DNA of 58,846 nucleotides from Parcubacteria group bacterium. GTDB taxonomy: Bacteria; Patescibacteriota; Minisyncoccia; Moranbacterales; UBA11712. Position numbers and translations under genes: made by a program. The stretch covers positions 1 to 58,846 of the forward strand of contig JBAZYY010000001.1 in assembly GCA_041659065.1 (NCBI GenBank), given 5' to 3'. The notes under the pieces were generated by a model. That model was not told the DNA's origin. It was given only the letters and a program-made list of their open reading frames with translations, and did no database searches. This document shows positions 28,466 through 58,846 of this stretch, piece after piece. Every line of letters begins with the position of its first letter. The first letter of the stretch is position 1.

Positions 28466-28650
28466 AAACTGCATTTAAATGAAATTTTAAAGAATTAGAG
28501 TTTATTAGTGTTCCTGATAAACTCAACTCGGTTGAAGTAGTAAGCTATTACAAGGGTTATAGGGCAAAATTTTGCTCAAGCATAGTGCTAGAAGGCTGGA
28601 TAAAAAAGGATGCTGACCTCTGAAAAGATCCTGTCGCGAGCAGAAGAGAA

Positions 28651-29301
28651 TTGATTACAAACTTATACATAAAGGGCAAAGGCATTGAAATAGGCGCTCT
28701 TCATAATCCTCTAATTGTGCCAGAATCGGCCAAAGTAAAATATGTTGACCGAATGACTGTTTTTGATCTGCGGGAACACTACTCAGAATTGAGTTCTCTG
28801 GATTTAGTTATTGTGGATATAATTTGCGATGGCGAAAAACTTGAAAAAATAGAAAATGATTCCCAGGATTTCGTAATTGCCAATCATTTTTTTGAACATT
28901 GCTAAAATCCATTATTAGCCCTGAAGAATATGTTGAGAGCAATTAAAGCTGGAGGAGTAGTATATCTCGCCGTTCCAGATAAACGATATACCTTTGATGT
29001 TGACAGACCAGTTACCAATTTTAGACATCTTGAAAATGACTTTTTGAATGATCCGGAAATTTCAAAAAAGATTCATTTTGAAGAATGGGTAGAACGTGTC
29101 AAAAAAATAAAAGATGAGAAAGTAAAAAAGAATAGGGTATTCGAACTTATGAATATGGATTACAGCATTCATTTCCACGTCTAGGCACAGCACGAGATCT
29201 TGGATTTTTTAGTCAAGGCAAAAAAATTCTTTGATTTTGAAGTTGAGATGTTTTGCAAGAACGGACACGAAATTATTGTCATTCTGTCTAAGTCGATTTA
29301 G
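28651..29301 (+). pseudogene. Decayed class I SAM methyltransferase gene with two in-frame stops
   Basis: Three ORF pieces share one frame and read as one methyltransferase (GIEIGAL ... HFFEHC*NPLLALKNMLRAIKAGGVVYLAVPD ... YSIHFHV*AQHEIL). The in-frame stops are TAA at 28903-28905 and TAG at 29182-29184. Confidence 0.75.
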
Positions 29302-29484
29302 CTTCTACTATTTATTATGATACTTACGCTTCTATTAAATATCCTAAAATTGTTTATTTGAAAGCTTTCCATTTTATCGGTGGGATTAATTCTTGGTTTT
29401 TTAAGATTCTCTTACCCATAAATATATCCGAAAAATACTTTAAGGCAATAAGCAATTATAATTTTTTAATACGGTGAGAGCATT

Positions 29485-30861: not shown

Positions 30862-30974
30862 TAATCAGGCTAATCGATTAGAGGTTATACGTTAAACTAT
30901 ATTGCAGATTTTAAATATGATAAATTATAAATTAATAAGTGTGTAATAGCTGAATGAGTAAAATCTAAAAATTA

Positions 30975-32573
30975 ATGGAAAATAAATATTTTTCTTATAT
31001 TACAGAAATAAAATATTGGAAAAAGATAATCTTACTTGTTATAATTATTGCTGTTTGCTATTATATTTCTTTAAGGTTTATTTTTCCTGGTCATTTTGAT
31101 CCTCTGATACCGCAAAATTATGATTACTTTTGGACATACAATGGGGTATCTTCTTTGCCTTGGGCAAAAGTATTCACATGCCCTAGGCCCATTGGTTTTT
31201 TTATGCTCAAAATTGTTGGCATCCTAGGGATGAGTGGAGCGATTATTTTTTTAATACTATTTAATTTTCTTAATATCTTGCTGACAATTATTTTTGTAAA
31301 AAAGATAAGTAATATTAAAATTTATTGGCCCATCATTCTTATTTATTTATTTTTAATATTTTCTCAGCCAGGATTTTATTTCAATTATACATATGATTTT
31401 TTTGATACGATAGCGTATTTTTTTGTAATAGCAACAATGCTAATCTGGTTAGGAATAGGGGAAAAATTAACTCCAATTCTCTTGGCTTTTCTGTCTATTT
31501 TAATAGGACTAAGCTTTTTTTCAAAAGAAACATATGTTGTTACGCTGCTGATTTTTTGGGCATATCAGTTTACTTTCAAAAAAAATAAAATACGGAGAAA
31601 TGCAGCAATTATGTTCCTTATTACCTCAAGTATTTTCATTACGGTATTAATTCATGGTCGTCTTTCCCAAAGTATTTGGATTGATTTCGCTTCAAGTGCA
31701 GACAGCCCATACTTTACTAATTTTAATCCGTTTTCAATATGGGAAACCTTTTGTTTTTATATGGGTGGGTGGGGAAATGCAGGAGCGATATCCATAATTG
31801 CACTTTCTCTGCTTATAGTAGTTTTTAATAAGAAATATTTAAAGGAATTTTTATTGCTTTTGTTTATGGGTATTGCGGCATATGTACCTTATTCTATTTT
31901 GCCTAACCATAAATACGGATTTTATTTTTGGCTGGGAATTCCATTGAGTTACGGCGTTATTATGTTGGCGCATCCTGATATGATTAACACCTTTTTGATA
32001 AAAGTAAAAAATAAAAAAACAGCCGCTATTTTTAATGCTGTTTTTATTATTGTATTTATAGTTCTAGCTGTTTTTTCTTTGAAAAAAAACATGAATCAAA
32101 AGAAAGGTATATTTTGGGCACCTAGTATGGAAATGGAACAAGTTAACAAAAATGTTATGTCTAGTTTTCCTATTTTAAAAAATAATATTGAAGATAATGA
32201 TAAAATTTTAATTACAGGAATGGATGTTGCGCGGCATCCATTCTCATGTCAACATGATCTGGTAGATGTTTATTTCAATAGAAAAAATGATTTTATTGAA
32301 AATTATTTTGGCAATAACCACGACTGGACTATTTTTAAACACACACAAAATTTAGATAAAAGTTGTGGTTCGATTAGCTATACTAATGATAGTAACTTAG
32401 ATTTGACTAGCTATGATAAAATATTTATTTTCGAGAATGATGAAAAGCTTATGAAAATAGTAAGCAAAGACGAAGTAATGTCACGAAAGGATTCCAAAAT
32501 TGGCAACGTATCTTATTATGAAGCAATTCTGAATCCTGAGTTATTTAATAACAATAGTCGGGTCTCAAATTAG
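30975..32573 (+). CDS. Polytopic membrane protein (possible GT-C type) with a C-terminal soluble domain
   Basis: 532 aa with at least 10 hydrophobic helices followed by a soluble tail of about 170 aa, a layout typical of GT-C enzymes. Family not recognised. Confidence 0.65.
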   Translation: MENKYFSYITEIKYWKKIILLVIIIAVCYYISLRFIFPGHFDPLIPQNYDYFWTYNGVSSLPWAKVFTCPRPIGFFMLKIVGILGMSGAIIFLILFNFLNILLTIIFVKKISNIKIYWPIILIYLFLIFSQPGFYFNYTYDFFDTIAYFFVIATMLIWLGIGEKLTPILLAFLSILIGLSFFSKETYVVTLLIFWAYQFTFKKNKIRRNAAIMFLITSSIFITVLIHGRLSQSIWIDFASSADSPYFTNFNPFSIWETFCFYMGGWGNAGAISIIALSLLIVVFNKKYLKEFLLLLFMGIAAYVPYSILPNHKYGFYFWLGIPLSYGVIMLAHPDMINTFLIKVKNKKTAAIFNAVFIIVFIVLAVFSLKKNMNQKKGIFWAPSMEMEQVNKNVMSSFPILKNNIEDNDKILITGMDVARHPFSCQHDLVDVYFNRKNDFIENYFGNNHDWTIFKHTQNLDKSCGSISYTNDSNLDLTSYDKIFIFENDEKLMKIVSKDEVMSRKDSKIGNVSYYEAILNPELFNNNSRVSN

Positions 32574-32645
32574 AAAGAAAAAAGGAAGTCACGGTTTTGC
32601 AAAAACATTTTTTTAAAAAGAAGAAGATTGTAAAAATTCGTGTAA

Positions 32646-33062
32646 TTAAAAGACAAGTTTTTTGTTTAGTAAGAAGGAAGTGATTCCTATTGGTAAAGTC
32701 ATAATTGCTCCTGCAATGTAAGCGCTTATGTGAAAATGGATTAAAATGCCAACGCTAGTCGTGAATAATAAATAGGTTATCGCATAAACTCCGATAAAGC
32801 GGAAAATCAAGGTACTGTTTTTATTCAAGAATACAAATCTTCCTATAGTTTGAAAATTGAATAATATTCCACATATTGTTGCGAATAATATTGCTATTGG
32901 ATAACGGAATCCTATAAATATAAAAAGAGAAAAAACTAAATAACCAAATATAGTATTTGCTCCGCTGGCAATAATAAATCTTATAAATTGTTTATTAATC
33001 AGCTTAATTATGTATATTTTAGAATTTTTATAAAAAGTATAATTATCATTTATTTCTATCAT
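32646..33062 (-). CDS. GtrA family membrane protein (polyprenol-phosphate-sugar flippase-like)
   Basis: 138 aa with 4 TM helices and the FIRFIIASGANTIFGY motif. Confidence 0.8.
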   Translation of the reverse strand: MIEINDNYTFYKNSKIYIIKLINKQFIRFIIASGANTIFGYLVFSLFIFIGFRYPIAILFATICGILFNFQTIGRFVFLNKNSTLIFRFIGVYAITYLLFTTSVGILIHFHISAYIAGAIMTLPIGITSFLLNKKLVF

Positions 33063-33066
33063 AATT

Positions 33067-34005
33067 TTAAAAATTTATTCTTTCTTTTTCAATGACTAAT
33101 GGTTGATTTTTTACCTGTGTATATATGGATGCTATATATTCTCCTATTATTCCGGTAAATAGAAGTTGAATAGATGAAACAAAGAAAAATCCAATAACAA
33201 GGGGTGCAACCCCCACTTCAAAACTTCTCCAATAAATTATTTTATATATAAAATAAATAGTTGCCACGGTGAAACTAATAAAAGCTCCAATAAACCCAAT
33301 GAAACTTGCTAGTCTGATAGGGAGTTTGGAGTGATTTACAAAAGCAAGCATAGCTATATCATAAAGAGTATAGAAATTATTGTTTGTCTTTCCAGCTTTT
33401 CGTTTAGGTTGAGTAAATTCGATTTCTTTTATGTTGGAACCAAACTTAGCGACTAATCCTCTGAAATAAGGATATGGTTCATTTAAACTTCGCAGAATAT
33501 CAATAAATTTCTTATCATATAGACCAAAGCCAGTAAAGTTTTTGATATATTCTGTTTCAGACATCTTTTCGCTCAACCAATAAAATAATTTACGAACAAG
33601 AAACATTAATGGATTTTCTTTACTCTTATTCTTAATACCGATAACAATATCGAATCCATTTTCCCACTCCTTAATAAAATTACTAATCATATCTGGAGGA
33701 TCCTGAAAATCAGCAGCCATCAAAACAATTGCGTCACCTTCTGCTTGAAGTAGACCATAAAAAGGGGAACAAATATGACCAAAGTTTTTCATATTTACAA
33801 TAATCTTTATTCTTTTATCTTCACTAGCCATTTTTTTTAGAATATTAACAGTTGAATCTGTTGAAGCATTATCAATAAAGATATGCTCAAATAAATATTC
33901 TGGATTATCTTGAAATACTTTTTCTACACTATCAAATAGATTTTGAACATTACCCTCCTCATTGAAACATGGTGTTACTACTGAAATAATTTTTTTATCG
34001 TTCAT
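33067..34005 (-). CDS. Polyprenol-phosphate glycosyltransferase, GT2 (GtrB/DPM1/ArnC-like)
   Basis: ISVVTPCFNEEGNV ... IDNASTDST ... MAADFQDPP, plus two C-terminal TM helices. Confidence 0.87.
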   Translation of the reverse strand: MNDKKIISVVTPCFNEEGNVQNLFDSVEKVFQDNPEYLFEHIFIDNASTDSTVNILKKMASEDKRIKIIVNMKNFGHICSPFYGLLQAEGDAIVLMAADFQDPPDMISNFIKEWENGFDIVIGIKNKSKENPLMFLVRKLFYWLSEKMSETEYIKNFTGFGLYDKKFIDILRSLNEPYPYFRGLVAKFGSNIKEIEFTQPKRKAGKTNNNFYTLYDIAMLAFVNHSKLPIRLASFIGFIGAFISFTVATIYFIYKIIYWRSFEVGVAPLVIGFFFVSSIQLLFTGIIGEYIASIYTQVKNQPLVIEKERINF

Positions 34006-45754: not shown

Positions 45755-46696
45755 CTAAATATCTAATAAATTCCTGAAATATTCGATTGTTTCTTTCAAT
45801 CCTTCCTCAAGTTTTATCTTTGGTTCCCAGTCGAGTTTTTCTTTCGAGAGCCTGATATCGGGTTTTCTTCGCTTGGGATCATCCGCGGGCAGCGGCCGGA
45901 AAGTTATTTTGCTGGCGCTTTCGGGGACTAGTTTGAGAATTTCTTCCGCCAACTCTTTTATGGTAAATTCTTCGGGATTTCCCAAATTTACTGGGCCGGC
46001 GAAGTCTTCCTCATTATTCATCATTTTTATCATCCCAGCAACAAGATCGTCAATATATTGGAAGCTACGGGCTTGGGATCCGTCGCCGTTGATCGTCAGA
46101 TCCACATTGCGGAGCGCTTGCACTGCAAAATTAGAAACAACCCGACCGTCGCCAGGATCCATGCCGGGACCGTACGTGTTAAAAATTCTGGCTATCCTGA
46201 TTGGAACGCCGTATTCGCGTTGGTAATCAAAAAACAGCGTCTCTGCCGCGCGCTTGCCCTCGTCATAGCAAGCGCGAATTCCAATTGGATTCACGTTTCC
46301 GAAATATGACTCGGGCTGGGGATGAACCAGCGGGTCGCCGTAGACTTCGCTGGTTGAAGCCTGAAAAATTACCGCCTTATTCTTTTTGGCGAGTTCGAGG
46401 AGATTGAGCGATCCCAAAATAGAAGTTTTCCAAGTTTCGATCGGGTCTTTTTGATAACGCGGAGGGGAAGCGGGGCAGGCGAGATTATAAATTTGATCCA
46501 GTCCGCTTATTTCCAAAGGATGAATAATATCATGCCCTATGAAACTGAATTGGGGATTATTGAGCAATTTCTCAATATTGGCTTTCCGGCCGGTGGATAA
46601 ATTATCCGAGCAGACAACCTCGTCTCCATTTTCGATAAGTTTTTCGCAAAGATGTGATCCGATAAATCCGGCGCCACCAGTAACTAAAATTTTCAT
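45755..46696 (-). CDS. UDP-glucuronate decarboxylase (UDP-xylose synthase; like the ArnA C-terminal domain)
   Basis: [12 protein letters not shown] ... [13 protein letters not shown] ... YDEGKR strings typical of the UXS family. Confidence 0.88.
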
Positions 46697-46706
46697 AGCA
46701 TTACAT

Positions 46707-48461
46707 CTACTTAAGTTTCCAAACTCCGTCGGATGTTTTTACTTGGGCGTTGACGGATAATTTCAAAAGGCCCTCCGAAGGTTCGAGAAAATTATTTTCA
46801 ATCAGGAAGGAATTGACCGGAGGTTTGCCTTTTATCAGCGCGCTATACCACGCGGAACCATCGGCAAAAGGAGCAATTAGGTAAATATTTTTATAGCGCG
46901 ATTCGTCGATCAATCCCAAGTCATCCGCGTTGAAAAAATAAACCGCTTGTTTTCCGTAAAGCGAGCTTAAGGGCTCGCTCATGAGTGACCAGCCGCTCCC
47001 GCTTGCTAGGCGGTCGATCAGGATCAAGTCGTCCGGCCCGAAATTTTGCGAAATTTTTTCAATTTGGGGAAGAAGATTTTGATTTTCGGACAGCCCGATG
47101 TATCTGGCACTGATGAATCCGTTGGCCAAAACCAAAAATACAAGGCAAAAATACAGAAAAAGGCGGTGGTAGAAAAATTTATAAAAAGCAAAAACGCTGT
47201 AGAAGATGAGAAGAGGAAAGACCGCGAACGCGTAGCGCCGGAACATCCAGGGGTCATCGAGAGATATGAGGGGCAGGATAAGATAAATAAAAGAGGGAAA
47301 TAGCAGGAGAAGCGGGGCCGTTTTCGGTTTCTGCAAATTCTTCCTCAGGCCAATCAGGAGAAAAATGGCGCCGGCCAGGCCCGCAACGACATAAACGATA
47401 AAATTATAATTAAGGAAAAGTATCAGGAGATTTTTATAAGTGCCGGACGATACGGCGGAACTGTTTTGCGAGACGGAGGGCAAAAAAACTTTGGCGATAT
47501 TTTTGAGGCTGTCATATAGGGCGGGAAAATTGAGGTACAGATAGAGCGCCAGAATAACAAAAAACCCGAGATAAACGAATTTAATCTTTTTCGGCCGGAG
47601 GCCGGGCTCCCTCCGGCTGCGAATCGCCAAATAAATTACGGCCAGTGCCAAAAACGCAATGCCTTCAATGCGGCAGAAAGAAGCCAGGGCAAATCCGAAA
47701 AGGGACATATAGAGCAAAATTTCTTTTTTGTCCTTGAGATAGGCGATGAAAAAGGAAAGACTCGCCCAAACCAGAAAAAGCATGTAAGTCTCCGTGAGGG
47801 CGTATTTAGCAAACCATAGGAAGGGAAAAAAAGTGGCTGCGAGTAGAAATCCGAGAAGAGAGACGGATTTTGGGAAAAAATTTCTGAGAATCAGCCAAAA
47901 GGAAATGAAAAATAAAAATAAGAACGGCAAATTGGCGTAGCGGATTCCATTCAGGCCGAACAACTCATAACTCGCGGCGAGGTATGAAGTATACGCGACC
48001 GGAAAACGCGAAAGCAGTTTGCCGCTGGCCGTATAGTCAAAGCCCGGATAATTAAGGGCTTTTCCAGGCCCGTATTTTTGAAACAAGTCTGCGGAAAGGG
48101 GAGTTTCGAATTTCAGCTGATGGTTCCTTGCAAGATCCAGGGCCGCGGTTGCGATTGCACCCTGGTCGCGTCCTCCGAACGCGGAAGGGGTGGCAAAGTA
48201 GCAAGTGACAGCGCTCACTGCCAGCGATATCAATATGACAGCCAAAAACCACCTAAATTCTTTCTTCAAATCGGGCTTATCGGGGATGTATTTTGCTATA
48301 AGTAAGGCTAAAATAGCACTTATGACAATTGACAAAACTGCTGTTTCCCGGTAGAATAAACCAGCGGATGAGAGCAGCAGAATCAGCCATCCAAAAAAGA
48401 AAAAAAACATGACTAATCCGCAAAATCCTCTGAAATTCAGACCAATATTATTTTTCATCAA
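46707..48461 (-). CDS. GT-C fold membrane glycosyltransferase (ArnT/PMT_2-like)
   Basis: 584 aa, polytopic. It is divergent from a polyprenol-phosphate GT2 and adjacent to sugar-nucleotide genes. Confidence 0.72.
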
Positions 48462-48509
48462 ATAGATTTATTTTTTGCTTAAAAACTTACTTTAAGATAC
48501 CATAAAAAC

Positions 48510-49460
48510 ATGGAAAATTCCAGCAGTTACAAGCCCCATCTATCAATCATAGCGCCTCTCTACAACGAAGAGGGGAATGCTTCCGAGCTGCATCGAAAAA
48601 TTGTGAATGCGTGCCGGGAACTCGCTAAATCATTCGAAATAATCTTTATCGACGACGGAAGCGATGACAAGACAAACGAGGTTTGTCGGGGGCTTGGTCC
48701 ACTGCGACTGATCACTTTTCGCAAGAATTTCGGGCAAACAGCCGCGCTTGACGCGGGCATAAAAAACTCAAAGGGAGAGATTATTATAACGATGGACGGG
48801 GATCTTCAAAATGATCCGGCTGACATCAAATTACTGCTCGAGAAATTAGATGAAGGATATGATGTGGTGTCGGGATGGAGAAACGAGCGAAAAGATTCGA
48901 TAATGAAAAGAGTATTTTCACGGACGGCAAATATTTTGCGAAAATTTTTGATCAATGACGGAATCCAGGATTCGGGCTGCAGCCTGAAAGCTTACCGGCG
49001 GGAATGTTTCGACGATTTGGACTTGTTCGGCGAAATGCACCGTTTTATTCCGGCGCTTCTCAAAGTGCAGGGGTTCAAGGTCGCTGAAGTTAAAGTCAGC
49101 CATCATCCGAGAACGCATGGAGTTTCAAAATACAACTGGAAAAGAGGAGTCAAAGGGTTTGTGGATATGATCAGCGTCTGGTTTTGGAAAAAATATGCCA
49201 ATCGGCCCCTGCATTTGTTCGGCGCCGGCGGGCTGATAATTTTCACGGCAGGAGTAGCATTCGGCCTTGCCTTGATAATCGCCAGAATATTTTATGCCGT
49301 ACCGCTCTCCAATAAAATCTGGCCCCTGATTGCCGTTTTTTTGGTCTTGATGGGCGTTCAACTTTTTATTTTCGGGCTTCTCGGCGATATACTCGTCAAA
49401 AACTACTATAAGGCGCAAGGCAAAATGAATTATAAGATCAAGGAGATCATAGATAATTGA
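48510..49460 (+). CDS. Polyprenol-phosphate glycosyltransferase, GT2 (ArnC/GtrB/DPM1-like)
   Basis: LSIIAPLYNEEGN ... FIDDGSDD ... MDGDLQNDP, plus two C-terminal TM helices. Confidence 0.87.
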   Translation: MENSSSYKPHLSIIAPLYNEEGNASELHRKIVNACRELAKSFEIIFIDDGSDDKTNEVCRGLGPLRLITFRKNFGQTAALDAGIKNSKGEIIITMDGDLQNDPADIKLLLEKLDEGYDVVSGWRNERKDSIMKRVFSRTANILRKFLINDGIQDSGCSLKAYRRECFDDLDLFGEMHRFIPALLKVQGFKVAEVKVSHHPRTHGVSKYNWKRGVKGFVDMISVWFWKKYANRPLHLFGAGGLIIFTAGVAFGLALIIARIFYAVPLSNKIWPLIAVFLVLMGVQLFIFGLLGDILVKNYYKAQGKMNYKIKEIIDN

Positions 49461-49515
49461 AAATGAAAAATTTAAAAGACTAATTTAAAATTGAGATTTA
49501 CGTCTAATATTACTT

Positions 49516-49968
49516 ATGAAGATTGCGATTTGCGCCAGCTTGTCTTTCACGGATCAGGTGGCGAAAGTAGCCAAAGAATTGGAAAATATAGGCTTTGCCG
49601 TTGAGATTCCTATCAGTTCAAGAAAAATATTGAAGGGACAAGTGACGCTTGCCGACATAGACAAGCTTAAGAAGCAAGATACCGCTTTTTCAGAATATAT
49701 TATCCAAAACGATTCGATTCGGGCGTATTGGGAAATAATTAAGGGTTCAGACGCAATCTTAGTGCTCAATTTCACTAAAAACGGAGTCAAAAATTATGTT
49801 GGGCCGAACGTTTTTTTGGAAATCGGCTTTGCACATGTTCTAGGGAAGCCTATTTTTCTTTATAACAATCTGCCGGACGGGCAATTTACGGCGGAGATTC
49901 TGTCCATGCAACCGATCGTGATCAATAAAAATTTAGCAAGAATTAAAAATTTCGAAAGAGAAGGATGA
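49516..49968 (+). CDS. Nucleoside 2-deoxyribosyltransferase-like fold protein (tentative)
   Basis: 150 aa. MKIAICASLSF ... GPNVFLEIGFAHVLGKPIFL resembles the NDT/Rcl-type G-x-x-x-E-x-G-x-A-x-x-x-G-K-P pattern. Confidence 0.45.
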   Translation: MKIAICASLSFTDQVAKVAKELENIGFAVEIPISSRKILKGQVTLADIDKLKKQDTAFSEYIIQNDSIRAYWEIIKGSDAILVLNFTKNGVKNYVGPNVFLEIGFAHVLGKPIFLYNNLPDGQFTAEILSMQPIVINKNLARIKNFEREG

Positions 49969-51089
49969 AAGTACTAACCATTGCCGCGACGCCTTTCTTT
50001 TCCGATCGCGGCTGCCATATCCGAATTTATAACGAAGCAAAATATCTCGAGAAACTGGGCGCCAAAGTGCGCCTCTGCACTTATTATCTTGGCGAAAATC
50101 CAGCAGGACTGGACATCCAACGAACCGGAAAAACTTTTTGGTACAAAAAAATTTCACCCGGATTCTCGTGGGCAAAAATCTGGTTGGATTTCAAGCTTCT
50201 TTTTCTCGTCCGGCGGGAAATAAAAAAATTTCATCCGGATGTGATTCACGCGCACCTGTTTGAGGGCTTGGCTGTTGGGCGCTTGGCCAGCCTGTTGGCA
50301 TTCAAAAGGATTCCGATTGTCTTTGATCTTCAGGGAGATCTGATGGAAGAGTTTGAGAGCTACAATGGGAAAAATAATTTAGCCAAAAAGCTATTTGTAG
50401 CCATATCGAATCGGGTCGCGAGCTGGGCCGATAGAGCGGTAGTCAGCAGCGAAAATGCAAAGTTTTGGAAACCAGGTTTCCAAAACGTGGGAGACGGGGT
50501 GGACTTGGAACTATTCAAAAATCCGGTGGAGCTCGGAGAGGATGAGAAGTCAAAAATTGAGAAAATCAAGGATTGGAAGAAAGACGCCAGGCTGTTGGTC
50601 TACATAGGTGGATTGAGCGATAATAAGGGTGTTGGGGGTCTACTTGAATCTTTCGGCAGGTGGGGAGAAAATAACCAATGGAAGTTGCTGTTGGGAGGGT
50701 TCGGAAAGAATGAAAAAAAATACAGAAAATATATCCAGGAAAACAATCTCGCGGACAAGGTGCATCTCGCGGGCAGGGTAAAATATTTTTCTTTACCGGC
50801 CTATCTGGTTCTCGCTGACGCGGCGATTGACCCCAAAAACGAAAGCGCGGAATCCAGCGGCAAGCTTATGGGCTATATGGCGGCCGGCCTTCCGATAATT
50901 TGTTTTGGAAATGAATTCAATAAAAAAAGATTAGGCGAGGAAGGTGTTTATATAAATTCAATGAGCGAGATAAGAGGCGCGCTTTTGAATTTGTCGGAGC
51001 GGAGCAGACGGGAATATGAATCGCAGGAGTTTTCCGAAGAGAAAGAAGTTTCGAAATTATTTTCAATTATCCAATCGTTAACAAAATAA
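49965..51089 (+). CDS. GT4 (group 1) glycosyltransferase
   Basis: GT-B pattern with a C-terminal ESSGKLMGYMAAGLPII. Overlaps the previous gene by 4 nt. Confidence 0.84.
   Translation: MKVLTIAATPFFSDRGCHIRIYNEAKYLEKLGAKVRLCTYYLGENPAGLDIQRTGKTFWYKKISPGFSWAKIWLDFKLLFLVRREIKKFHPDVIHAHLFEGLAVGRLASLLAFKRIPIVFDLQGDLMEEFESYNGKNNLAKKLFVAISNRVASWADRAVVSSENAKFWKPGFQNVGDGVDLELFKNPVELGEDEKSKIEKIKDWKKDARLLVYIGGLSDNKGVGGLLESFGRWGENNQWKLLLGGFGKNEKKYRKYIQENNLADKVHLAGRVKYFSLPAYLVLADAAIDPKNESAESSGKLMGYMAAGLPIICFGNEFNKKRLGEEGVYINSMSEIRGALLNLSERSRREYESQEFSEEKEVSKLFSIIQSLTK
50462..50486. repeat. 25-nt perfect palindrome GTTTTGGAAACCAGGTTTCCAAAAC inside the GT4 gene
   Basis: Arms GTTTTGGAAACC and GGTTTCCAAAAC around a central A. 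Read as F-W-K-P-G-F-Q-N. Confidence 0.95.
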
Positions 51090-51126
51090 AATCTATCGGT
51101 ATTCTAGTAGACTGATAGAAAATAAG

Positions 51127-51363
51127 ATGGCAAATAAAATTAATTGCAAAACGGGGCTAAAGAAAAACGTAATTGGCGAAAAAGTTTTTGTTCGGGAGAT
51201 TTCGTTATGCAAAACGCTCTCAGAAGAAAATAAAGGTAAATGTGGATGGGGAAAGTGCGCAAGCTGTGGCGTAATTCCGCTACTGATTAAGCTGCACAAA
51301 GGAAAGCTGTTGGAGGATCCGCGGGAAATTAAACTGGCCAAAGAAAAATATCTCGAAAAATGA
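51127..51363 (+). CDS. Small Cys-rich hypothetical protein
   Basis: 78 aa containing ...KGKCGWGKCASCGV.... No family recognised. Confidence 0.45.
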   Translation: MANKINCKTGLKKNVIGEKVFVREISLCKTLSEENKGKCGWGKCASCGVIPLLIKLHKGKLLEDPREIKLAKEKYLEK

Positions 51364-51400
51364 TTTGAGCTTTGGAATCCTGGCGCATGAATCAAAAATT

Positions 51401-52576
51401 ATGAAAACTTTTTTAATAAAAATCGGCAAGGCGTTTAATGTCCTGAAGCGGGACGGGATTATCCGGGGAGGCAGGCGAGTAGCAACCGCTTTTTTCGCGC
51501 TTTTTCGGCGGGTTGGATCGGGTGATATTCTTTTTATCACCGGCGGTGTCGGGGACAGCGCGCTTTATCGGGCCCACCACCAAGCGGAGGAACTGAATTT
51601 GCGTGGCTTTCGCTGTTCAGTCACTGTTCAGGATAATCCGTTGCTTGCAAGATACGCGGACAGATTCAAGATATTTATTTTTCATAGAACTCTATACACG
51701 CCACTGCTGAAAAAAATGATAGAAGAAATTAAGAAGCAGAAAAAAGAGATAATCTTCGAAACTGACGATCTTGTTTTTGATCCGAAATATCTCGAGTATA
51801 TGGATTATTTCCAGCATATGAATTCGCTGGAGAAGAAACTTTATGAAAAGGGTGTAGGTGGAGAAATTCTCAGCGATCCGTACCTCAAAACTTGCGTTGC
51901 GACAACATCTTTTTTGGCGGAGAAACTTCGTGAATACGGCAAGAAAGTTTTTATTTCAAAGAATAAACTATCCAATAAGGATTTGGAGACAGCTAACCAG
52001 ATTTTGGAAACCAGGTTTCCAAAAAGCAGTAATATAGTGAAAATAGGCTATTTGAGCGGCACTATCAGTCATAACAAAGACTTCGCGGCCGTCGAAGGCG
52101 CGCTGCTCAAAGTTATGCGGAAATTTCCGGAGGTAGTTCTTTTTCTCGCGGGGCCGCTCGATATCGGTCCGGCTTTTGACCCCATGAAAGAGCGGGTAGA
52201 AAGATCGAAATTTGTTTCCCGAAAAAAGCATTTTGAAAATATTTCCGGATTGGACATAAATATCGCTCCGCTCGAAGAAGGAAATCCGTACTGCGAGGCA
52301 AAGTCTGAGCTCAAATTTTTCGAAGCTGGAATTCTTGGCGTGCCGACAGTCGCGACGGCGACCCAGACCTTTCGTGAAACCATTCGTGACGGCGAAGACG
52401 GATTTGTGGCAAGCGGCAATGAGGAATGGGCGGAGAAGCTCGAAAAACTTATCCAAGACGAAGATCTGAGAAAAGAGATGGGCGCGAAAGCACGAGAAAA
52501 AACTCTTGCCGAGCACGTAACCAAGAACAGCCATAACGAAGAATATTATGTTTACTTAAGGTCTAAATTGGCATAG
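51401..52576 (+). CDS. GT4-like (GT-B) glycosyltransferase
   Basis: IGYLSGTISHNKDF and EAKSELKFFEAGILGVPTVAT strings. The ATG at 51401 is preferred over the TTG at 51365. Confidence 0.78.
   Translation: MKTFLIKIGKAFNVLKRDGIIRGGRRVATAFFALFRRVGSGDILFITGGVGDSALYRAHHQAEELNLRGFRCSVTVQDNPLLARYADRFKIFIFHRTLYTPLLKKMIEEIKKQKKEIIFETDDLVFDPKYLEYMDYFQHMNSLEKKLYEKGVGGEILSDPYLKTCVATTSFLAEKLREYGKKVFISKNKLSNKDLETANQILETRFPKSSNIVKIGYLSGTISHNKDFAAVEGALLKVMRKFPEVVLFLAGPLDIGPAFDPMKERVERSKFVSRKKHFENISGLDINIAPLEEGNPYCEAKSELKFFEAGILGVPTVATATQTFRETIRDGEDGFVASGNEEWAEKLEKLIQDEDLRKEMGAKAREKTLAEHVTKNSHNEEYYVYLRSKLA
52002..52024. repeat. 23-nt perfect palindrome TTTTGGAAACCAGGTTTCCAAAA inside the second GT4-like gene
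   Basis: Identical to the core of the 50462-50486 palindrome but read in a different frame (I-L-E-T-R-F-P-K). Confidence 0.95.
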
Positions 52577-52622
52577 ATAGTTGGTAAAATAGGCGCATAA
52601 AATTTGTAAAAAAATGTAAAAA

Positions 52623-52646
52623 CTACCATCCTCGGTAGGATGGTAG
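52623..52646 (+). repeat. 24-nt motif, copy 4 (CTACCATCCTCGGTAGGATGGTAG)
   Basis: Same three-hexamer layout as copy 1. Like copy 1 it is preceded by AATGTAAA. It lies between the GT4-like stop and the GT2 start. Confidence 0.9.
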
Positions 52647-52688
52647 TGAGTGTTATGGTTTTTCAAAACATATTTTATAGATAAGCTA

Positions 52689-53741
52689 ATGTGTATGATT
52701 GAAGCGGCGGTAATCATAGTAAATTGGAACGGAAAAAATTTTTTGAAGGAATGCTTTGATTCTTTGGCTTTTCAGGCGCTCATGAATTTCAAAATATTTT
52801 TTGTCGATAACGGATCGGACGACGGCTCGGTCGAATTTTTGGAAGAAAATTATATCGGGAAGAATAAAATAGAAATCGAAGTCATAAAGTTGGAAAATAA
52901 CACGGGCTTTTCTTTCGCGAACAACCTGGGAATCCAAAAAGCCTTTGCTGATGAAAATATAAAATGGGTTTTGATCTTAAATAATGATGCTAAGCTTGAC
53001 CAAAACTTTTTCGCCGAATTATCAAAGTGCGCGAAAAGCTATCCGGGCGCAGGCTCCATCCAGCCCAAGGTTCTGAGCTATTATAACCCGGAAAAGGTAG
53101 ACTGCGCCGGCATCTTAACGAGCTATGACGGTGTTTCGACTAACCGGGGATTCGGAGCGGATGCTAGCGAATTTAATAAGGAAAAAGAAATCTTCGGCGC
53201 AAACGCGACGGCCGGACTGTACGCGAGAGAAGCGCTGGAAGCGGTAAAGATAAAAGTAGGTGAATATTTCGACAATGATTTTCGGATGTATTACGAAGAT
53301 GCCGACCTGGCTTGGCGGATGCGGCTGGCCGGGTTCAAATCATTTTATTGCCCGCGAGCCGAAGTCTTTCATCTGCATAGCGCCACAGCCAAGAGAGTGT
53401 CGGGGCTCAAGGCGTACTATTTGAATCGCAACCGTTTCTACGTAATATTCAAAAACTTTCCGCTAAAATATCTATTATTGGCTTTGCTTTTGACTCCGGC
53501 TCGCTATTTGATTGCGCCATTCCGCCGGCCAAAGGAAGCAAAAAAAACGGGTGAAGCCGGGAAGATAAGAAAAAAAGCCGGCTCGGCCGGAATGATTTTG
53601 AAAGCCTGGCTTGATGTCCTCGGAAATTTGTCGAGTATTCTTGCGAAAAGGCGAATAATCAGGGATAATAGACGAGTAAGCGGCAAAGAAATCAATTCCT
53701 GGTTTCAAAAATACGGCGCTAAGTTTAAAAAAACATTTTAA
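52689..53741 (+). CDS. GT2 glycosyltransferase (rhamnosyltransferase-like)
   Basis: AAVIIVNWNGKNFL ... FFVDNGSDDGS ... YYEDADL. The start at 52689 or 52695 is preferred over 52650. Confidence 0.84.
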   Translation: MCMIEAAVIIVNWNGKNFLKECFDSLAFQALMNFKIFFVDNGSDDGSVEFLEENYIGKNKIEIEVIKLENNTGFSFANNLGIQKAFADENIKWVLILNNDAKLDQNFFAELSKCAKSYPGAGSIQPKVLSYYNPEKVDCAGILTSYDGVSTNRGFGADASEFNKEKEIFGANATAGLYAREALEAVKIKVGEYFDNDFRMYYEDADLAWRMRLAGFKSFYCPRAEVFHLHSATAKRVSGLKAYYLNRNRFYVIFKNFPLKYLLLALLLTPARYLIAPFRRPKEAKKTGEAGKIRKKAGSAGMILKAWLDVLGNLSSILAKRRIIRDNRRVSGKEINSWFQKYGAKFKKTF

Positions 53742-53771
53742 AGATAAATTTATATTGTTAAAGGAAAAATC

Positions 53772-54662
53772 TTGAAAAATAAAAATCAAAAATCACCGAT
53801 AAAAAAAATCTTCCTGGCTTCGCTGCTATTATTCTTTTTTTGTTTTATGGGGGCGAAGATGGCGGAAGCCCAAACTCTCAAGATTGGATTCGTGGCGGAC
53901 TGGGAGTATGGCAGCCAAAGAAAATATGACCACAAATCTCCTTCCAAGGCCAAGAAATACCTGAAGCGCGCGGTGAATTATTATAATTCAATTTATAAGC
54001 CGGACCTGGCGATTGGCGGGGGGGATTATATTCTCAGCCGAAAAATTAGCAAGAAAAAAGCAAAAAAGCAGTTGAAGGAAGTAACTAAAATATTTAACGG
54101 AGTCAACGCGCCCAAGATGTACTGCATCGGCAATCATGATCTTTTTGATTTAAAAAAGCCGGAGGCGATGGGAATCCTGGGTTTGGAATATAATTATAAT
54201 TCAAAAGACATTGGGGGCGTGAGAGTTATCACCTTGGACACCAATGAAGACGACAGCGACGGGGCAGCAGGCAGAGTGTCGCAAGCCCAGCTTGACTGGC
54301 TGGAAAAACAGCTCGAAACCGAGCTTCCCGTGATTGTTTTTTCGCATCATAGCCCGGTTTTGACTCCAAATGGGAAAAAATTCAGGATGAATTTATATCA
54401 ACCCGAGCAGTTGATGTCAGTTCTTGAAAAAAACGGAAATGTGGTGGCAATGTTCAGCGGCCATCGAAACGTGAATTATATGACGGAGGTGAACGGAATC
54501 AGCTATGTGATAATAAACAATCTCGGTGACACAAAAGCCTTGGGGAGTTTCGCGAAAATTAATATCGAGACTTCAGAGGATAATCAGGTGACTGTGCATG
54601 TGGAACAACTCGGGAAAAAGCCGACAAGCTACGATTTTTCAAAAATATTAAAATCAAATTAA
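53772..54662 (+). CDS. Secreted metallophosphoesterase (calcineurin-like)
   Basis: Signal peptide, then GGGDY, GNHD, SHHSP and SGHRN motifs. TTG start with AAGGA 7 nt upstream. Confidence 0.83.
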   Translation: MKNKNQKSPIKKIFLASLLLFFFCFMGAKMAEAQTLKIGFVADWEYGSQRKYDHKSPSKAKKYLKRAVNYYNSIYKPDLAIGGGDYILSRKISKKKAKKQLKEVTKIFNGVNAPKMYCIGNHDLFDLKKPEAMGILGLEYNYNSKDIGGVRVITLDTNEDDSDGAAGRVSQAQLDWLEKQLETELPVIVFSHHSPVLTPNGKKFRMNLYQPEQLMSVLEKNGNVVAMFSGHRNVNYMTEVNGISYVIINNLGDTKALGSFAKINIETSEDNQVTVHVEQLGKKPTSYDFSKILKSN

Positions 54663-54670
54663 AATAAAAA

Positions 54671-55873
54671 ATGAAAAAAACGTTGGTAAAATCTATCCTC
54701 TTAGCGACATTGCTTTGTCTAATGGCTAGCTTTTGCGTCTCAAGCGCATTAGCAAATACCTCGCAATGGAAAAACCTTTCCGGGAAAAATGGAAAGGGAG
54801 GTATCATCAATAAAAAGAAAGGAACAGAAACGAATATTTGCGCGGGATCCAACGGAAGAATATATGCCACTTTCCAGGATAATTCCAAGCAAGCGCGTGT
54901 TAAAGCTTACAGTAGCGGCGTATGGTCGGATTTGGCTGATCAAAATAGTCCGAATGGGCATATAAGCCAGGGAGAGGCTGCAAATTCATATTTAGAAACC
55001 AGAGGGGAAGAAACTTACGCCGCTTTTACGGATTACAGCCAGGGTGGAAAAATCAGGGTTAGAAAATGGGGTGGGAGTAATTGGGCGGATTTGGCAGATT
55101 ATAAATTTTCTCAAGGACTGATAAGTACCGGGGAGGGAGTCGAGCCAATCCTGGCCTTTGACAAGGCGCAGCAAAATTTGTATGCTGCCTTTTTGGACAA
55201 GGGACTTGAGGGGCGAACAAAAATAATGAAGTGGAGCATTTTACGGTTAGACTGGAGCGACGTGGGAAGTGGAGGCATCTTAGGCGATTTGACTTCTGCC
55301 GAGGTTGATCTTGCTGCCTCAAAGAAGGACGACAGTATTTATGCCGCATTTGAAGATTTTTCGATGGGTGGCAGGATCAGGGTTCAAAAATGGAACGGAA
55401 CTAGCTGGCAGAATATATCTGACAAAAACCATATGGATGGGATCATAAGTCCAAGGCAAGGATATAGCCCATCGCTCGCAGTGGATGCAAATGATAACAT
55501 CTATCTCGTCTATGGCGGAAAAAATCAAAAAGGAACGTACGTGTGGAAATGGGATGGACAAGTCTGGAGCGAACCGGGCGGTGGAGTTTTGGTAAAAGGC
55601 AGATCAAAAGAAGGGACAGTCGAGGTGGATTCAAATGAGAACGCTTATGTAGCTTTTTCGCAAAAAGTTGGAGGCCTAAGCTGGAAGGTAGCGGTTAAAA
55701 AATGGGACGGAAGCAGCTGGTCGGATACGAAATATAGAGGCAAAAAATATTTAACCAAGGGGAAAGGAATGGGCGACCCCGCGTTAAGTTTTGCCGACGG
55801 ACGGCTTTATGTTTCATTTACCGACGCGAAGCATAAAAATAAACCAAGAGTGATGGAACTTAATACCGAGTAG
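54671..55873 (+). CDS. Secreted repeat protein, probable beta-propeller (possible lectin)
   Basis: Signal peptide plus about 7 repeats of about 50 aa with the pattern Y-A-A-F-x-D-x(3-5)-G-(K/R)-I-R-V-x-K-W-x-G-x-x-W. Confidence 0.72.
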   Translation: MKKTLVKSILLATLLCLMASFCVSSALANTSQWKNLSGKNGKGGIINKKKGTETNICAGSNGRIYATFQDNSKQARVKAYSSGVWSDLADQNSPNGHISQGEAANSYLETRGEETYAAFTDYSQGGKIRVRKWGGSNWADLADYKFSQGLISTGEGVEPILAFDKAQQNLYAAFLDKGLEGRTKIMKWSILRLDWSDVGSGGILGDLTSAEVDLAASKKDDSIYAAFEDFSMGGRIRVQKWNGTSWQNISDKNHMDGIISPRQGYSPSLAVDANDNIYLVYGGKNQKGTYVWKWDGQVWSEPGGGVLVKGRSKEGTVEVDSNENAYVAFSQKVGGLSWKVAVKKWDGSSWSDTKYRGKKYLTKGKGMGDPALSFADGRLYVSFTDAKHKNKPRVMELNTE

Positions 55874-55875
55874 AG

Positions 55876-57546
55876 ATGCTGGATTACCTGAAAAAAAACT
55901 ATAAAAGCATAATATTCGCACTTGTAATATTGATCGCGATTGGACTAAGAACCTGGCATTTTCATGACTGGCTTTTCTTTAAAATGGATCAGGCGCGGGA
56001 TTCAATGCTCGTGAACGAGGCATATCAAAAGGGGTCGGGATACCTCCCGCTCCTTGGGCCAAAGGCCGGGGGTACGCAAGCTAATGTCGGTCCGGCTTTT
56101 TATTATTTTCAGTATATCCCAACCGTGATATTCCATAGCAATCAGCCGGATGTGATGGCGTATTCCGATTTGCTTTTTTCGATACTTTCAATCTTCCTGC
56201 TTTACGCGCTCTTCAAGAAATACTTCAGTCGGGATTGGTCAATGATCCTGGTTTCCGCCTATGCTTTATGCTTTTTGGGCATCCAATATTCGCGTTTTGC
56301 CTGGAATCCAAACTCGCTTCCGTTCTTCAATATCCTTTTCTTTTACTCCTTACTTAGCGTTTTTGATGAAAAGGTAAAATACCGTTTGCGCTGGGCGCTT
56401 GCGGCGGGTTTTTCTTTCGCCATTTCCACCCAGCTTCATTTTCTTTCTTTTTTCACTTTGCCGCTTATTACCCTGATATTCCTATATTTCAACCGCAAGA
56501 ACGCGAGAAGATACCTGAATTGGAAAATTATCGCCATATTTATTTTTATTGCCGCGCTGATTTATGTGCCGGTAATTGCAAACGAAATTCATAGCCACGG
56601 CCATGCGGTAAAAGAATTTATAAAAGCGCTTCACAGCAAGCCGGATAACCATACTTTTTTCAAAAAAATAGTCCGGGACGTCAGGTACTTTGGCCAAAAC
56701 TGGTTCATTATTTTCGCAGGGTATATTAGCAAAAAGAAAGAGTTGGCCGGGTCGGCTGTAGCCTGGATAATATTTATAATTCCGGCGATAGTGTTGAACT
56801 ATCTGTCCTGGAAAAAAGAAAAAGATAACGTTAAGAAAAATTTTTTACTCATTACTTTAATCTGGTTTCCGACGTATTTACTGGCTTATATCCCAATTGC
56901 CTATGATATCCGTCCGCGTTTTTTTCTGCCGATGTTATTTCTGCCCTTCGCGTATCTGGGGTACATTGCAAATTTTTTAGCAGGCCGGAAGCAAAAGATT
57001 CTTCAGGCGCTGGCGTACTTAATAGTCATTGCGATAATCGCGGGAAATCTGATTGGAACTTGCTTATGGTTTCGGGAAATAATGGCAGCTCAAAAAAAAG
57101 GAGTTTATCCTTCGCGAACTATAATTTTAAAATCTCAGGATGGCATCGTACTGTGGCATTTGGAAAAAGCAACGGAATATATGGCCGAAAATTGCAGTTC
57201 CGAGAGGATATACTACTATTCAAATTCCGAATATAAGAGGCCAATCAAGTATCTTCTGAGTCTCAAAGGAAAGGATCCTGTTTCAGTGATGAATATGGAA
57301 AAAGGCGGTGAAAATTGCGTATTCGCCACGTATCTCACGCGGGCGAAGAAGCTAAAGCTGTCTCCGGTGCTGGCGGATAAATTCGATATTGAGAGCACCC
57401 AGAAATTCGGGGCATTAAGCGTTGACAAACTCGTTCTCAGGGAAGGATTCGTGGGTCAGGAGCTAAATCTCAAAAAACAAAAGGATGAAGATGCGGCCGA
57501 AAAAGCGGACAGGCTTTATTGGAAAGACGTAATAAAAAAATTCTAA
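55876..57546 (+). CDS. GT-C fold membrane glycosyltransferase (ArnT/PMT_2-like)
   Basis: 556 aa, polytopic. HDWLFFKMDQARD and RFAWNPNSLPFF strings. The start is 2 nt after the previous stop. Confidence 0.78.
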   Translation: MLDYLKKNYKSIIFALVILIAIGLRTWHFHDWLFFKMDQARDSMLVNEAYQKGSGYLPLLGPKAGGTQANVGPAFYYFQYIPTVIFHSNQPDVMAYSDLLFSILSIFLLYALFKKYFSRDWSMILVSAYALCFLGIQYSRFAWNPNSLPFFNILFFYSLLSVFDEKVKYRLRWALAAGFSFAISTQLHFLSFFTLPLITLIFLYFNRKNARRYLNWKIIAIFIFIAALIYVPVIANEIHSHGHAVKEFIKALHSKPDNHTFFKKIVRDVRYFGQNWFIIFAGYISKKKELAGSAVAWIIFIIPAIVLNYLSWKKEKDNVKKNFLLITLIWFPTYLLAYIPIAYDIRPRFFLPMLFLPFAYLGYIANFLAGRKQKILQALAYLIVIAIIAGNLIGTCLWFREIMAAQKKGVYPSRTIILKSQDGIVLWHLEKATEYMAENCSSERIYYYSNSEYKRPIKYLLSLKGKDPVSVMNMEKGGENCVFATYLTRAKKLKLSPVLADKFDIESTQKFGALSVDKLVLREGFVGQELNLKKQKDEDAAEKADRLYWKDVIKKF

Positions 57547-57695
57547 ATTCTAAATTCTAATTTCTAATTTTGAATCAAATTTCGGCGGCTAAAGTTTGAA
57601 TTTCGAAATTATGCAATTCAAAATTGATTAAAAATTTAAAATTCCCGCCCGCTTCGACTCGCGAAGCGAGTCGGGCAGGCAAAATTCAAAATTTC
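57541..57695. repeat. Intergenic repeat block: 7-mer tandem (ATTCTAA-like), AT-rich palindromes and a GC hairpin
   Basis: ATTCTAA is present in about 3 tandem copies plus degenerate copies. There is an AATTTCGAAATT palindrome and a CGACTCGC-GAA-GCGAGTCG hairpin. The architecture (AT-rich words ending ...AAATTC followed by a GC hairpin) resembles the right end of the 23S insertion. Confidence 0.5.
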
Positions 57696-57716
57696 AAGGA
57701 GATATTTGATTGGAAA

Positions 57717-58846
57717 TTGGGACTTTTTCTGCTGGCAATCGCAGTTGGTATATTTTTGCGGGTTTATCAATTTGGGGATTGGCTTTATTTCAAGCTCGAT
57801 CAGGCTCGGGATGCTTTTGTGATTTCGAATGCGTATTTCAACGGACCAGGGGCTCTGCCGCTGCTGGGGCCTAGGGCGGGGGGCACTACTTTACTCTTAG
57901 GGCCGGCTTACTACTACTTTCAGTATTTTGCCCTGCTGCTCACTCGTAATCTTTGTCCCACAACGTACGCATTGCCGGATATTACATTTTCTATCCTTTC
58001 GATCCCGCTGTTCTATATATTCCTAAAGAAATATTTCAGCCGGGATTGGTCTCTGGGGCTGGCTTCAGCTTACGCTGTTTGTTTTTTTGCGATTGAGTAT
58101 TCCCGTTTTGCCTGGAATCCGAATCCGCTGCCCTTTTTTACGATCTTGTACTTCTTTTCAATTCTCAACGCGCTGGATGAAAGAAGTTGCCACCCTTGGA
58201 TTTGGCTGACAATTTCCGCTGTGGCGCTGGCTATAGCCACTCAGCTCCATTTCTTGGCCTTTCTCGCATTACCGACGGTCACAATTCTTTTTCTGGTATT
58301 TTCGAGAAAGCAAGTCAAAAAGACTTTGGGCTTGGGGAAAATAATATTTTTCATCGGTATATTTTTATTTTCTTATCTGCCGTGGATCCTTAACGACCTA
58401 TCCGCGAATTGGAAAAACACGCGATTATTTTGGAAAGCGGTATTGATAAAATTATTCAGTGCAACCCTGCTTGAGGATATTATTACCGGCATGGCCAATT
58501 TTGCGCATAACTGGCTGGTGGTTCTTACCGGTTATTTGCCCGGCAGCAAGAATATTGCGATAGCCTTGGCAATTTGGATAGTTTTCGTCATTCCTGCAAT
58601 TTATGCGGGCTTCCGTTTATATCGGAGCGAAAAAGATTTCGCCAAAAAATCATTCATTTTACTCTCGATTTTGTGGATATTGGTGTTTTTGGTTATAGAT
58701 ATTCCTATCGGACACCAATTATGGCCAAGATTTTTCATGGGTACGCTTGTAATCCCTTTCATTTTCCTTGGCTATTATCTGCAGTACTTTACCGAGAGAA
58801 TCAAGAGATTCAGGGCTTATATTTTTGTGGCGGCATTAACCATCGT
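57717..58846 (+). CDS. GT-C fold membrane glycosyltransferase, tandem paralog of 55876-57546, truncated by the window end
   Basis: Open frame with no stop from 57600 to 58846, absent from the ORF track. It translates to ...GDWLYFKLDQARDAF...GPRAGG...RFAWNPNPLPFF..., collinear with the upstream paralog. The start is uncertain (TTG at 57717 assumed). Confidence 0.7.
   Translation, partial: MGLFLLAIAVGIFLRVYQFGDWLYFKLDQARDAFVISNAYFNGPGALPLLGPRAGGTTLLLGPAYYYFQYFALLLTRNLCPTTYALPDITFSILSIPLFYIFLKKYFSRDWSLGLASAYAVCFFAIEYSRFAWNPNPLPFFTILYFFSILNALDERSCHPWIWLTISAVALAIATQLHFLAFLALPTVTILFLVFSRKQVKKTLGLGKIIFFIGIFLFSYLPWILNDLSANWKNTRLFWKAVLIKLFSATLLEDIITGMANFAHNWLVVLTGYLPGSKNIAIALAIWIVFVIPAIYAGFRLYRSEKDFAKKSFILLSILWILVFLVIDIPIGHQLWPRFFMGTLVIPFIFLGYYLQYFTERIKRFRAYIFVAALTI

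Follow-up and report, generated by a model that had tools for sequence, protein, structure and literature searches.

A palindrome shared by two glycosyltransferase genes of a Parcubacteria group bacterium: a probable REP-like repeat with a RAYT partner in Patescibacteria

The stretch of DNA analysed here, 58,846 nucleotides (nt) from contig JBAZYY010000001.1 of a Parcubacteria group bacterium and referred to throughout as the window, contains two unrelated glycosyltransferase (GT) genes of the GT-B kind in one operon, and inside each of them lies a copy of the same 23-nt palindrome, the element with which this study is concerned. The two copies and their host genes, with family assignments from Pfam, are as follows:

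49965..51089, plus strand: host gene 1, a GT4-family GT-B glycosyltransferase of 374 amino acids (aa)
50463-50485 (50462-50486 with the flanking G/C pair, the arms then being 12 nt): palindrome copy 1, in the GT4 linker
51365..52576, plus strand: host gene 2, a Glycos_transf_1 / Glyco_trans_1_2-type glycosyltransferase of 403 aa from TTG
52002-52024: palindrome copy 2, in the linker of host gene 2, with arms of 11 nt around a central A

Homologues of host gene 2 begin at 51401, not at the TTG at 51365, and where homologues of the two genes are named, they belong to Candidatus Moranbacteria, Parcubacteria and other Patescibacteria.

The 23-mer TTTTGGAAACCAGGTTTCCAAAA is present at both sites with 0 mismatches and has the architecture 11 + 1 + 11; because the 11-nt arms surround a single A, its two strands differ at the central base alone. 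An earlier note on this DNA, made from the sequence only, had reported an identical palindrome read in different frames in the two genes, and both statements are confirmed by the exact match and by the translations: copy 1 encodes F-W-K-P-G-F-Q, residues 167-173 of the GT4 protein, and copy 2 encodes L-E-T-R-F-P-K. We agree with its conclusion that such a repeat lies beyond the reach of protein-level conservation. Both copies recur in an independent assembly, a 39-kb contig from the Logan assembly of run SRR18595301 (L050) that is 100% identical to the window over positions 45876-58846, and this contig, together with an orthologue from another sample (L040), rules out an assembly artefact. Shuffles of the window give an expectation of 0.01 chance matches to the 23-mer at up to 3 mismatches, so that chance is negligible, as the note had argued. 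In a palindrome scan the two copies are the two longest palindromes of the window, and no further recurring palindrome family was found there. They stand 1.5 kb apart with the central base in the same orientation and, folded as single-stranded DNA, reach -10 kcal/mol (copy 1, z = -4.4) and -8.3 kcal/mol (copy 2, z = -4.3).

Both sites fall in permissive segments between domains, as had been proposed. The peptide of copy 1 lies between the Pfam domains Glyco_transf_4 (residues 19-166) and Glycos_transf_1 (residues 196-317) of the GT4 protein, and that of copy 2 lies directly upstream of the C-terminal domain of the second protein. When each protein is aligned with several dozen homologues, the GT4 linker, SSEN...DG(V/I)D, and the linker of the second gene, NKLS...IGY(F/L)SG, are hypervariable, and at the latter other homologues often carry long insertions. 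At the protein level, these insertions (alignment A2) resemble translated GC-rich repeats, with segments such as KKCHSERSEESQ..., CHPERSRGI... and RSLD.ARDD.

The palindrome is not private to the window. It belongs to a family with the core GGAAACC-W-GGTTTCC and T/A-rich feet, which a clade of Patescibacteria has in common. A scan for the 21-mer TTTGGAAACCWGGTTTCCAAA through one genome per species (596 Gb, about 1 chance match expected) returned 12 loci, 11 of them from four Patescibacteria metagenome-assembled genomes (MAGs), one of which carries the 21-mer on five contigs, and a metagenome scan added 27 further stretches. The presence of the same 21-mer in many other genomes excludes the isolated gene-conversion event that the earlier note had named as the outcome that would refute it. 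No match was found in the viral contigs scanned, and a phage origin was rejected on that ground. The sole match outside Patescibacteria (L009:3530-3566, Microvirga sp., GC content 0.62) has the 21-mer nested in a longer palindrome, CCGCATGA-TTTGGAAACCTGGTTTCCAAA-TCATGCGG; as about one chance match is expected, the core may have matched by accident here, though the extension is odd.

Most copies are intergenic, and their neighbours are functionally unrelated (MGMT/VIT1, MurB/HPF, ParA/TopA); further intergenic sites lie 5' of ftsZ, 3' of fpg and 5' of NYN-domain genes. Doublets with a spacing of 20-46 bp are common, and at all of the approximately six independent doublet loci the central base alternates between T and A. 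The members of a doublet are therefore mutually inverted, as in the bacterial interspersed mosaic elements (BIMEs) and REPINs formed by repetitive extragenic palindromes (REPs). One contig (L016:1190-4313) has tandem NYN-domain genes with an inverted doublet, spaced 46 bp, before each of them, and holds six palindrome copies within 11 kb.

The same palindrome is linked to a transposase gene. A gene of approximately 215 codons for an HUH/Y1 enzyme has a copy upstream, a copy inside and a copy downstream in L005/L022/L035, L025/L039, L036 and L032, the encoded proteins being 55-100% identical and the outer span of the palindromes 703-709 bp. The first copy precedes the ATG by 15-27 nt, the second occupies codons ~60-66 and the third follows the stop codon at a distance of 3-5 nt; the two outer copies have opposite orientations, as seen from asymmetric centres that are reverse-complementary in L025, L032, L047, L048 and the first of the two L049 genes. 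The protein matches the Pfam family Y1_Tnp (E = 7.7e-7), and the HUH histidines H85 and H87 and the tyrosine Y145 are invariant among 38 homologues. A search of its sequence against the PDB gave no match. With its AlphaFold model (mean confidence, pLDDT, 83.5), a fold search gave as the best PDB match 4ER8_A (E = 1.4e-5), which is the E. coli TnpA-REP with a bound REP hairpin, followed by the TnpA structures of IS608 and ISDra2. The family comprises more than 3,600 protein clusters and is Patescibacterial wherever the source organism is named; some of its members are called RayT by JGI, after the REP-associated tyrosine transposases (RAYTs), and many sit on short contigs.

The gene order secA-RAYT-secD(-secF) is kept in L022/L005/L035, L047, L036 and L039, with proteins 51-65% identical to the L047 copy, and this syntenic place at such identities indicates vertical inheritance, not transposition. 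In L048 and L049 the gene adjoins pth, and each of these two has two paralogues, every paralogue with a palindrome of its own. The secA-secD gap of L002/L021 contains palindromes without a Y1 gene. There is one gene copy per palindrome type in the sampled genomes, in none of which did we see a second identical unit of palindrome, gene and palindrome; in the MAG PEYH01, one RAYT locus (L005) is accompanied by four further contigs on which the palindrome stands without the gene. The same genomes also hold other palindrome families: TGTTAGGGTCGCACCCTAACA, with 4-5 copies (L004:540-780 and L031:4210-4388) that adjoin a RAYT paralogue of only 37% identity, and ACGAGGCCGGGCCTCGT, with two copies (L002:7430-7530 and 7591-7671). 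Several REP families therefore exist side by side in one genome.

Palindrome and gene change together. Diverged homologues (55-65% identical) have other palindromes at the same positions, and all three positions agree within a gene, with CTTAGAAAC in L047, CTTAGAAGC in L048 and CTTGGACACG in the first L049 gene; the second L049 gene has CTTGGAAGC at its upstream and internal positions. In an alignment of 22 sites, 8 of the 12 stem pairs have changed on both sides, and none of 500 shuffles reaches the observed score. Every RAYT-like gene examined has its own flanking palindrome also inside the open reading frame (ORF), at the following places in the genes listed:

L025:1525-1543, internal copy
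L032:2597-2617, internal copy
L047:4180-4202, internal copy
L048:269-289, internal copy
L049:10178-10210 and 11065-11089, internal copies of the two paralogues

In 93 of 114 homologues the heptapeptide encoded there, [FL]G[NHSD]x[VAM]SK, shows reverse-complement symmetry in each of its three residue pairs, the random expectation being 0.15 per residue pair, and it belongs to a low-confidence loop of the AlphaFold model (residues ~59-73). To our knowledge, no RAYT gene has been described before with a cognate REP inside it. The type of the second tandem paralogue of L049, CTTGGAAGC, also occurs within the ORF of the first paralogue (L049:10472-10498), whose own type is CTTGGACACG.

A similar variety is found at the glycosyltransferase linkers. 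All six orthologues of host gene 1 for which DNA is available have a strong palindrome in the GT4 linker, which is 12-14 aa long, and four different sequences are represented among them:

window and L040: TTTTGGAAACC-A-GGTTTCCAAA
L042: GGACATC-G-GATGTCC
L044: 33 nt, with the centre GGACATC-C-GATGTCC
L045: TGTAGACGTC-C-GACGTCTACA
L046: ATCGTAGCGGT-TTA-ATCGCTACGAT

L040, at 81.6% nucleotide identity, retains 22 of the 23 palindrome bases at the same codons, and the centre of the palindrome falls on the identical nucleotide in the window, L040, L042 and L044. The version of L042 and L044, GGACATC-S-GATGTCC, is two compensated pairs away from that of the window and, judged from proteins and not from codons, may correspond in the RAYT frame to the LGH[RP]MSK of P0328, P0343 and P0357. 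At the linker of host gene 2, a palindrome occurs only in the window and L044 (two of five orthologues; L041, L042 and L045 are without), and that of L044 is a different, perfect palindrome of 38 nt, TTGGAGACTAAGTCCCCAATTGGGGACTTAGTCTCCAA (L044:4278-4315). The same contig has an inverted doublet, CCTAACATC-S-GATGTTAGG, in the 50-nt gap directly 5' of its GT4 gene (L044:2447-2491).

A second hypervariable loop of the GT4 protein, between NKGVG and WKLL (window positions ~50630-50700), has insertions of approximately 45 nt (13-15 aa) in L040, L044 (3211-3233) and L046 (3221-3243), which form compound hairpins of -29 to -40 kcal/mol; in L045 a palindrome (3192-3214) leaves the loop length unchanged, and the window and L042 have none. 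The hairpins of this loop are thus a presence/absence difference among close relatives. Hairpin repeats thus settle again and again in the glycosyltransferase linkers and turn over there, and at the first GT4 site the turnover is length-neutral, like that of the internal RAYT copy, which changes at fixed length. A close kin of the window palindrome, ACTTGGAAAC-TAA-GTTTCCAAGT, lies at L046:5166-5188, in the GT2 gene that matches window positions 52650-53741.

Within coding DNA, the 23-mer has the property of containing zero stop codons across all six frames, with the readings FWKPGFQ, FGN[QL]VSK and LET[RW]FPK, whereas sister palindromes such as CTTAGAAAC do have stops. The same frames are used in other intragenic copies: a palindrome doublet in a UvrC linker (L012) is read FGNLVSK-LETRFPR, a reverse transcriptase has a copy read FGNQVSK and an HlyD-like protein has one read LETRFPN. 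This reuse of frames and the lack of stops fit survival in coding linkers. Intragenic REPs have been documented earlier, notably in uvr genes (Di Nocera et al. 2013, PMC3733652).

We therefore consider it likely that the 23-mer is one of the REP-like hairpin repeats that belong to a RAYT system of Patescibacteria, tolerated in coding linkers. When single-stranded, the palindrome would extrude a hairpin, which the RAYT-like enzyme would recognise, cut and rejoin, as E. coli TnpA-REP cleaves and rejoins the REP hairpin in vitro (PMC8266576). Cutting and rejoining would account both for the spread of the element and for the continued match between its copies and the enzyme, and the two in the window would persist in permissive linkers through their lack of stops in six frames and their short, loop-compatible peptides. 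The earlier note had left four options side by side, and two of them are retained here, the palindromic element colonising coding DNA and the site for a recombinase or nuclease, in the form of an RAYT-like HUH/Y1 enzyme; its other two, a site for a dimeric protein and a hairpin in the messenger RNA, leave the link to the transposase unexplained. The enzyme might swap hairpins in place at unchanged length, by a two-sided cut and rejoining or by an equivalent conversion, so that every copy of a genome, those in coding linkers and in the enzyme's own ORF included, would remain in step with its specificity, a doubtful idea but one that would explain the joint change of the three RAYT copies, the variety of the GT4 linker at fixed position and length and the lack of any change in length; either short-patch conversion or two-sided cutting as the route of length-neutral turnover is speculative. 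A further possibility is that intragenic copies were co-opted to control or vary surface-glycan genes.

Several observations weigh against the interpretation as a RAYT-maintained repeat. The only NCBIfam match of the transposase is REP_Tyr_transpos (NF047646), with 19.5-45.6 bits against a cut-off of 80, and the protein is hence a distant relative of the RAYT model and not an equivalog. In the window, which makes up 58.8 kb of a 339-kb contig, tblastn finds no RAYT, secA, secD or pth, and the presence of a cognate enzyme elsewhere in the genome is therefore predicted only. There are two copies in the 58.8-kb window and about 9 exact cores in the sampled parts of one MAG, which suggests a copy number of tens at most, compared with hundreds for classical REPs. 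Change on both arms is equally expected for the site of a symmetric dimer that binds double-stranded DNA. The identical run that the window shares with L040 at the palindrome, 26 nt, is exceeded by runs of 32 and 31 nt elsewhere in the gene, and so gives no evidence of selection at the DNA level either way. Finally, the insertion at the linkers that the earlier note had envisaged does not appear in the alignments: neither window gene is longer at its site than its nearest homologues, the orthologous segments have approximately 50% nucleotide similarity, and plain insertion is therefore not demonstrated. To these is added the absence of the sequence tag of described REPs, to which we return below.

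Other explanations have to be set against the same data. The hairpin could be kept for a host role in the glycosylation operon, at the level of mRNA or of DNA, for instance as an exonuclease barrier, as a site of processing or by making translation pause between the two Rossmann domains, and although we think this unlikely, it is compatible with a REP-like repeat, namely as a REP co-opted by the host, the likeness to transposase sites then speaking of origin only. Such a role would account for a palindrome at or near one codon of the GT4 linker in six of six orthologues, and for palindromes still perfect, with arms of 10-16 nt, in genes whose proteins share only 59-80% identity, a persistence implying that they are actively maintained or renewed; REPs downstream of genes are known as RNA elements (PMC3733652). 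It is harder to reconcile with a palindrome in only two of five orthologues of gene 2, with hairpins in the second GT4 loop that come and go even among close relatives, and with the occurrence of the 21-mer in unrelated contexts, intergenic as well as in UvrC, the reverse transcriptase and the HlyD-like gene. Neither site has an Rfam match, the only matches in the window being the 23S ribosomal RNA (rRNA) end and 5S rRNA, and a known RNA family at the palindromes was thus rejected. An operator for a symmetric regulator or nucleoid protein that binds double-stranded DNA, with the copies around the Y1 gene as its regulatory sites and the glycosyltransferase copies as internal operators that might loop over 1.5 kb, would suit the perfect two-fold symmetry, the doublets 20-25 bp apart (approximately two helical turns), the copy 15-27 nt before the start codon of the Y1 gene, which is an operator place, and the symmetric change of half-sites, which a dimer site would show as well. 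We nevertheless regard it as very improbable. The only consistently linked gene encodes not a regulator but an HUH/Y1 enzyme of single-stranded DNA whose best structural match is a complex with a REP hairpin, copies past the stop codon and within the ORF are not in operator positions, the neighbours of the scattered copies, from MGMT/VIT1, MurB/HPF and ParA/TopA to FtsZ, Fpg and NYN, are functionally unlike, and genomes differ by the exchange of entire stems, with the three copies of any one gene remaining alike.

The unit of approximately 705 bp could also be an autonomous, IS200-like insertion sequence (IS), the solitary palindromes being footprints left when the gene was deleted between identical ends. 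The size of IS200 matches the 703-709 bp of the unit, deletion between ends that share an identical 21-23-mer would leave one copy, the secA-secD gap of L002/L021 has palindromes but no Y1 gene, and many family members sit on short contigs, as repeats do. The fixed chromosomal place of the gene, between secA and secD or beside pth, at 51-65% identity, and the single copy per palindrome type in each sampled genome do not agree with an autonomous element, and a footprint in coding DNA would add approximately 23 nt and shift the frame, whereas the window genes have no change in length; we hold this explanation to be quite improbable. That the repeat reflects a private event, whether gene conversion or duplication between the two glycosyltransferase genes, chance or an assembly artefact, is excluded. 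All that recommends it is the situation within the window, with only two copies, 1.5 kb apart in one operon and with the same orientation of the central base; the same 21-mer in many genomes and contexts, the palindrome of L040 at the same codons in another sample, the independent assembly with both copies and the chance expectation of 0.01 contradict it.

REP/RAYT is the best-known case of a domesticated transposase that maintains hairpin repeats, and it has been studied almost solely in Proteobacteria. The Patescibacterial RAYT-like system resembles these REPtrons of Enterobacteria, Pseudomonas and Stenotrophomonas in its short inverted palindromes (20-50 nt) that flank a single, vertically inherited HUH/Y1 gene, in its scattered extra copies, often as inverted doublets like BIMEs or REPINs, in a palindrome and an enzyme that differ together between lineages, and in the structural match to 4ER8. 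REPtrons are marked by a RAYT that is domesticated, passed on vertically and accompanied by cognate REPs (PMC8266576, PMC3686654), and an unpaired GTAG/CGTC tag at the hairpin foot defines most described REPs (PMC8266576, PMC3733652). The Patescibacterial element differs in having no conserved GTAG/CGTC beside any copy, where instead the flanking T- and A-runs pair, and this is the remaining point against its assignment; its palindrome is fully symmetric with one unpaired central base, the transposase ORF contains a third copy, the hosts belong to the phylum Patescibacteria and the NCBIfam score is below the cut-off.

Intragenic REPs and the Rickettsia palindromic elements (RPEs) offer the closest likeness for the copies in genes, being palindromes in frame at permissive sites that are translated as loops, with uvr genes among the hosts, as in the UvrC of L012. 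RPE-1 is approximately 100-150 bp long and adds 30-50 residues, whereas the Patescibacterial unit of 23 nt (7 residues) makes no net change in the length of the host linkers. We know of no dedicated transposase for RPEs; the Patescibacterial family has a candidate. The IS200/IS605 elements (IS608, ISDra2) share the Y1 HUH fold, hairpin-forming ends recognised on single-stranded DNA and a unit of approximately 700 bp. Their ends are distinct subterminal left and right hairpins, while the Patescibacterial ends are identical perfect palindromes, and the Patescibacterial gene also differs in keeping its place across distant relatives and in being far outnumbered by its hairpins.

Thus, the REP/RAYT system and intragenic REPs are both known kinds, and the Patescibacterial case is an instance of both; it differs from them in its phylum, the symmetric palindrome without a tag, the obligatory copy in the ORF that changes together with the flanks and the length-neutral turnover at fixed positions in coding linkers. 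The literature searched contained no link of REPtrons or TnpA-REP to Patescibacteria, an absence from that search and no proof of novelty. The same REP/RAYT logic would then operate in a large family within the tiny, densely coding genomes of Patescibacteria, and the symmetric, tag-less palindrome, the copy in the ORF and the linker turnover at a fixed site may ease the study of how REPs spread. For annotation, the family explains the odd recurring Patescibacterial peptides FGNLVSK, LETRFPK and FWKPGFQ, and it flags hypervariable linkers of surface-glycan proteins as landing sites of repeats and not as protein adaptation.

Some further sequences of the window were compared with the palindrome. 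The two degraded look-alikes that the earlier note had placed in the GT2 gene, at 53596-53615 and 53695-53711, could not be upheld as copies, both being at chance level and neither within 3 mismatches of the 23-mer, and the GT2 palindrome of L046 lies elsewhere than these. With up to 1 mismatch allowed, the 11-nt half-site occurs 8 times against 3.6 expected, a mild enrichment from which the four matches of the real copies are excluded. A 74% match at 49814-49836 is at chance level and was rejected. An intrinsic terminator was discarded as well, in that on the plus strand the preceding T-run pairs with the following A-run and flanks the stem; a terminator scan flags copy 1 on the minus strand only, within a gene. 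A DNA-uptake sequence and a CCWGG methylation site were dropped on account of a density that is far too low and a conserved unit of 21-23 nt.

Elsewhere, the window contains the following landmarks:

1-631: 3' end of the 23S rRNA
910-1016: 5S rRNA gene
2820-6335, minus strand: dnaE

The rRNA genes and dnaE indicate that the region is chromosomal. A long surface-polysaccharide region of the window includes a Wzt-type ABC transporter and many glycosyltransferases, and inside it the GC content falls to 0.28-0.34, compared with ~0.42, over positions 28000-34000, where two large ORFs (29485-30861 and 30975-32573) are without a Pfam match; this low-GC stretch is possibly a variable or acquired portion of the glycan cluster. 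The 73-nt gap between the second glycosyltransferase gene and the GT2 gene holds a hairpin with an 11-bp stem, ACTACCATCC-TCGG-TAGGATGGTAGT (52622-52647), which is unrelated in sequence to the 23-mer and has a terminator-like T-run on the minus strand.

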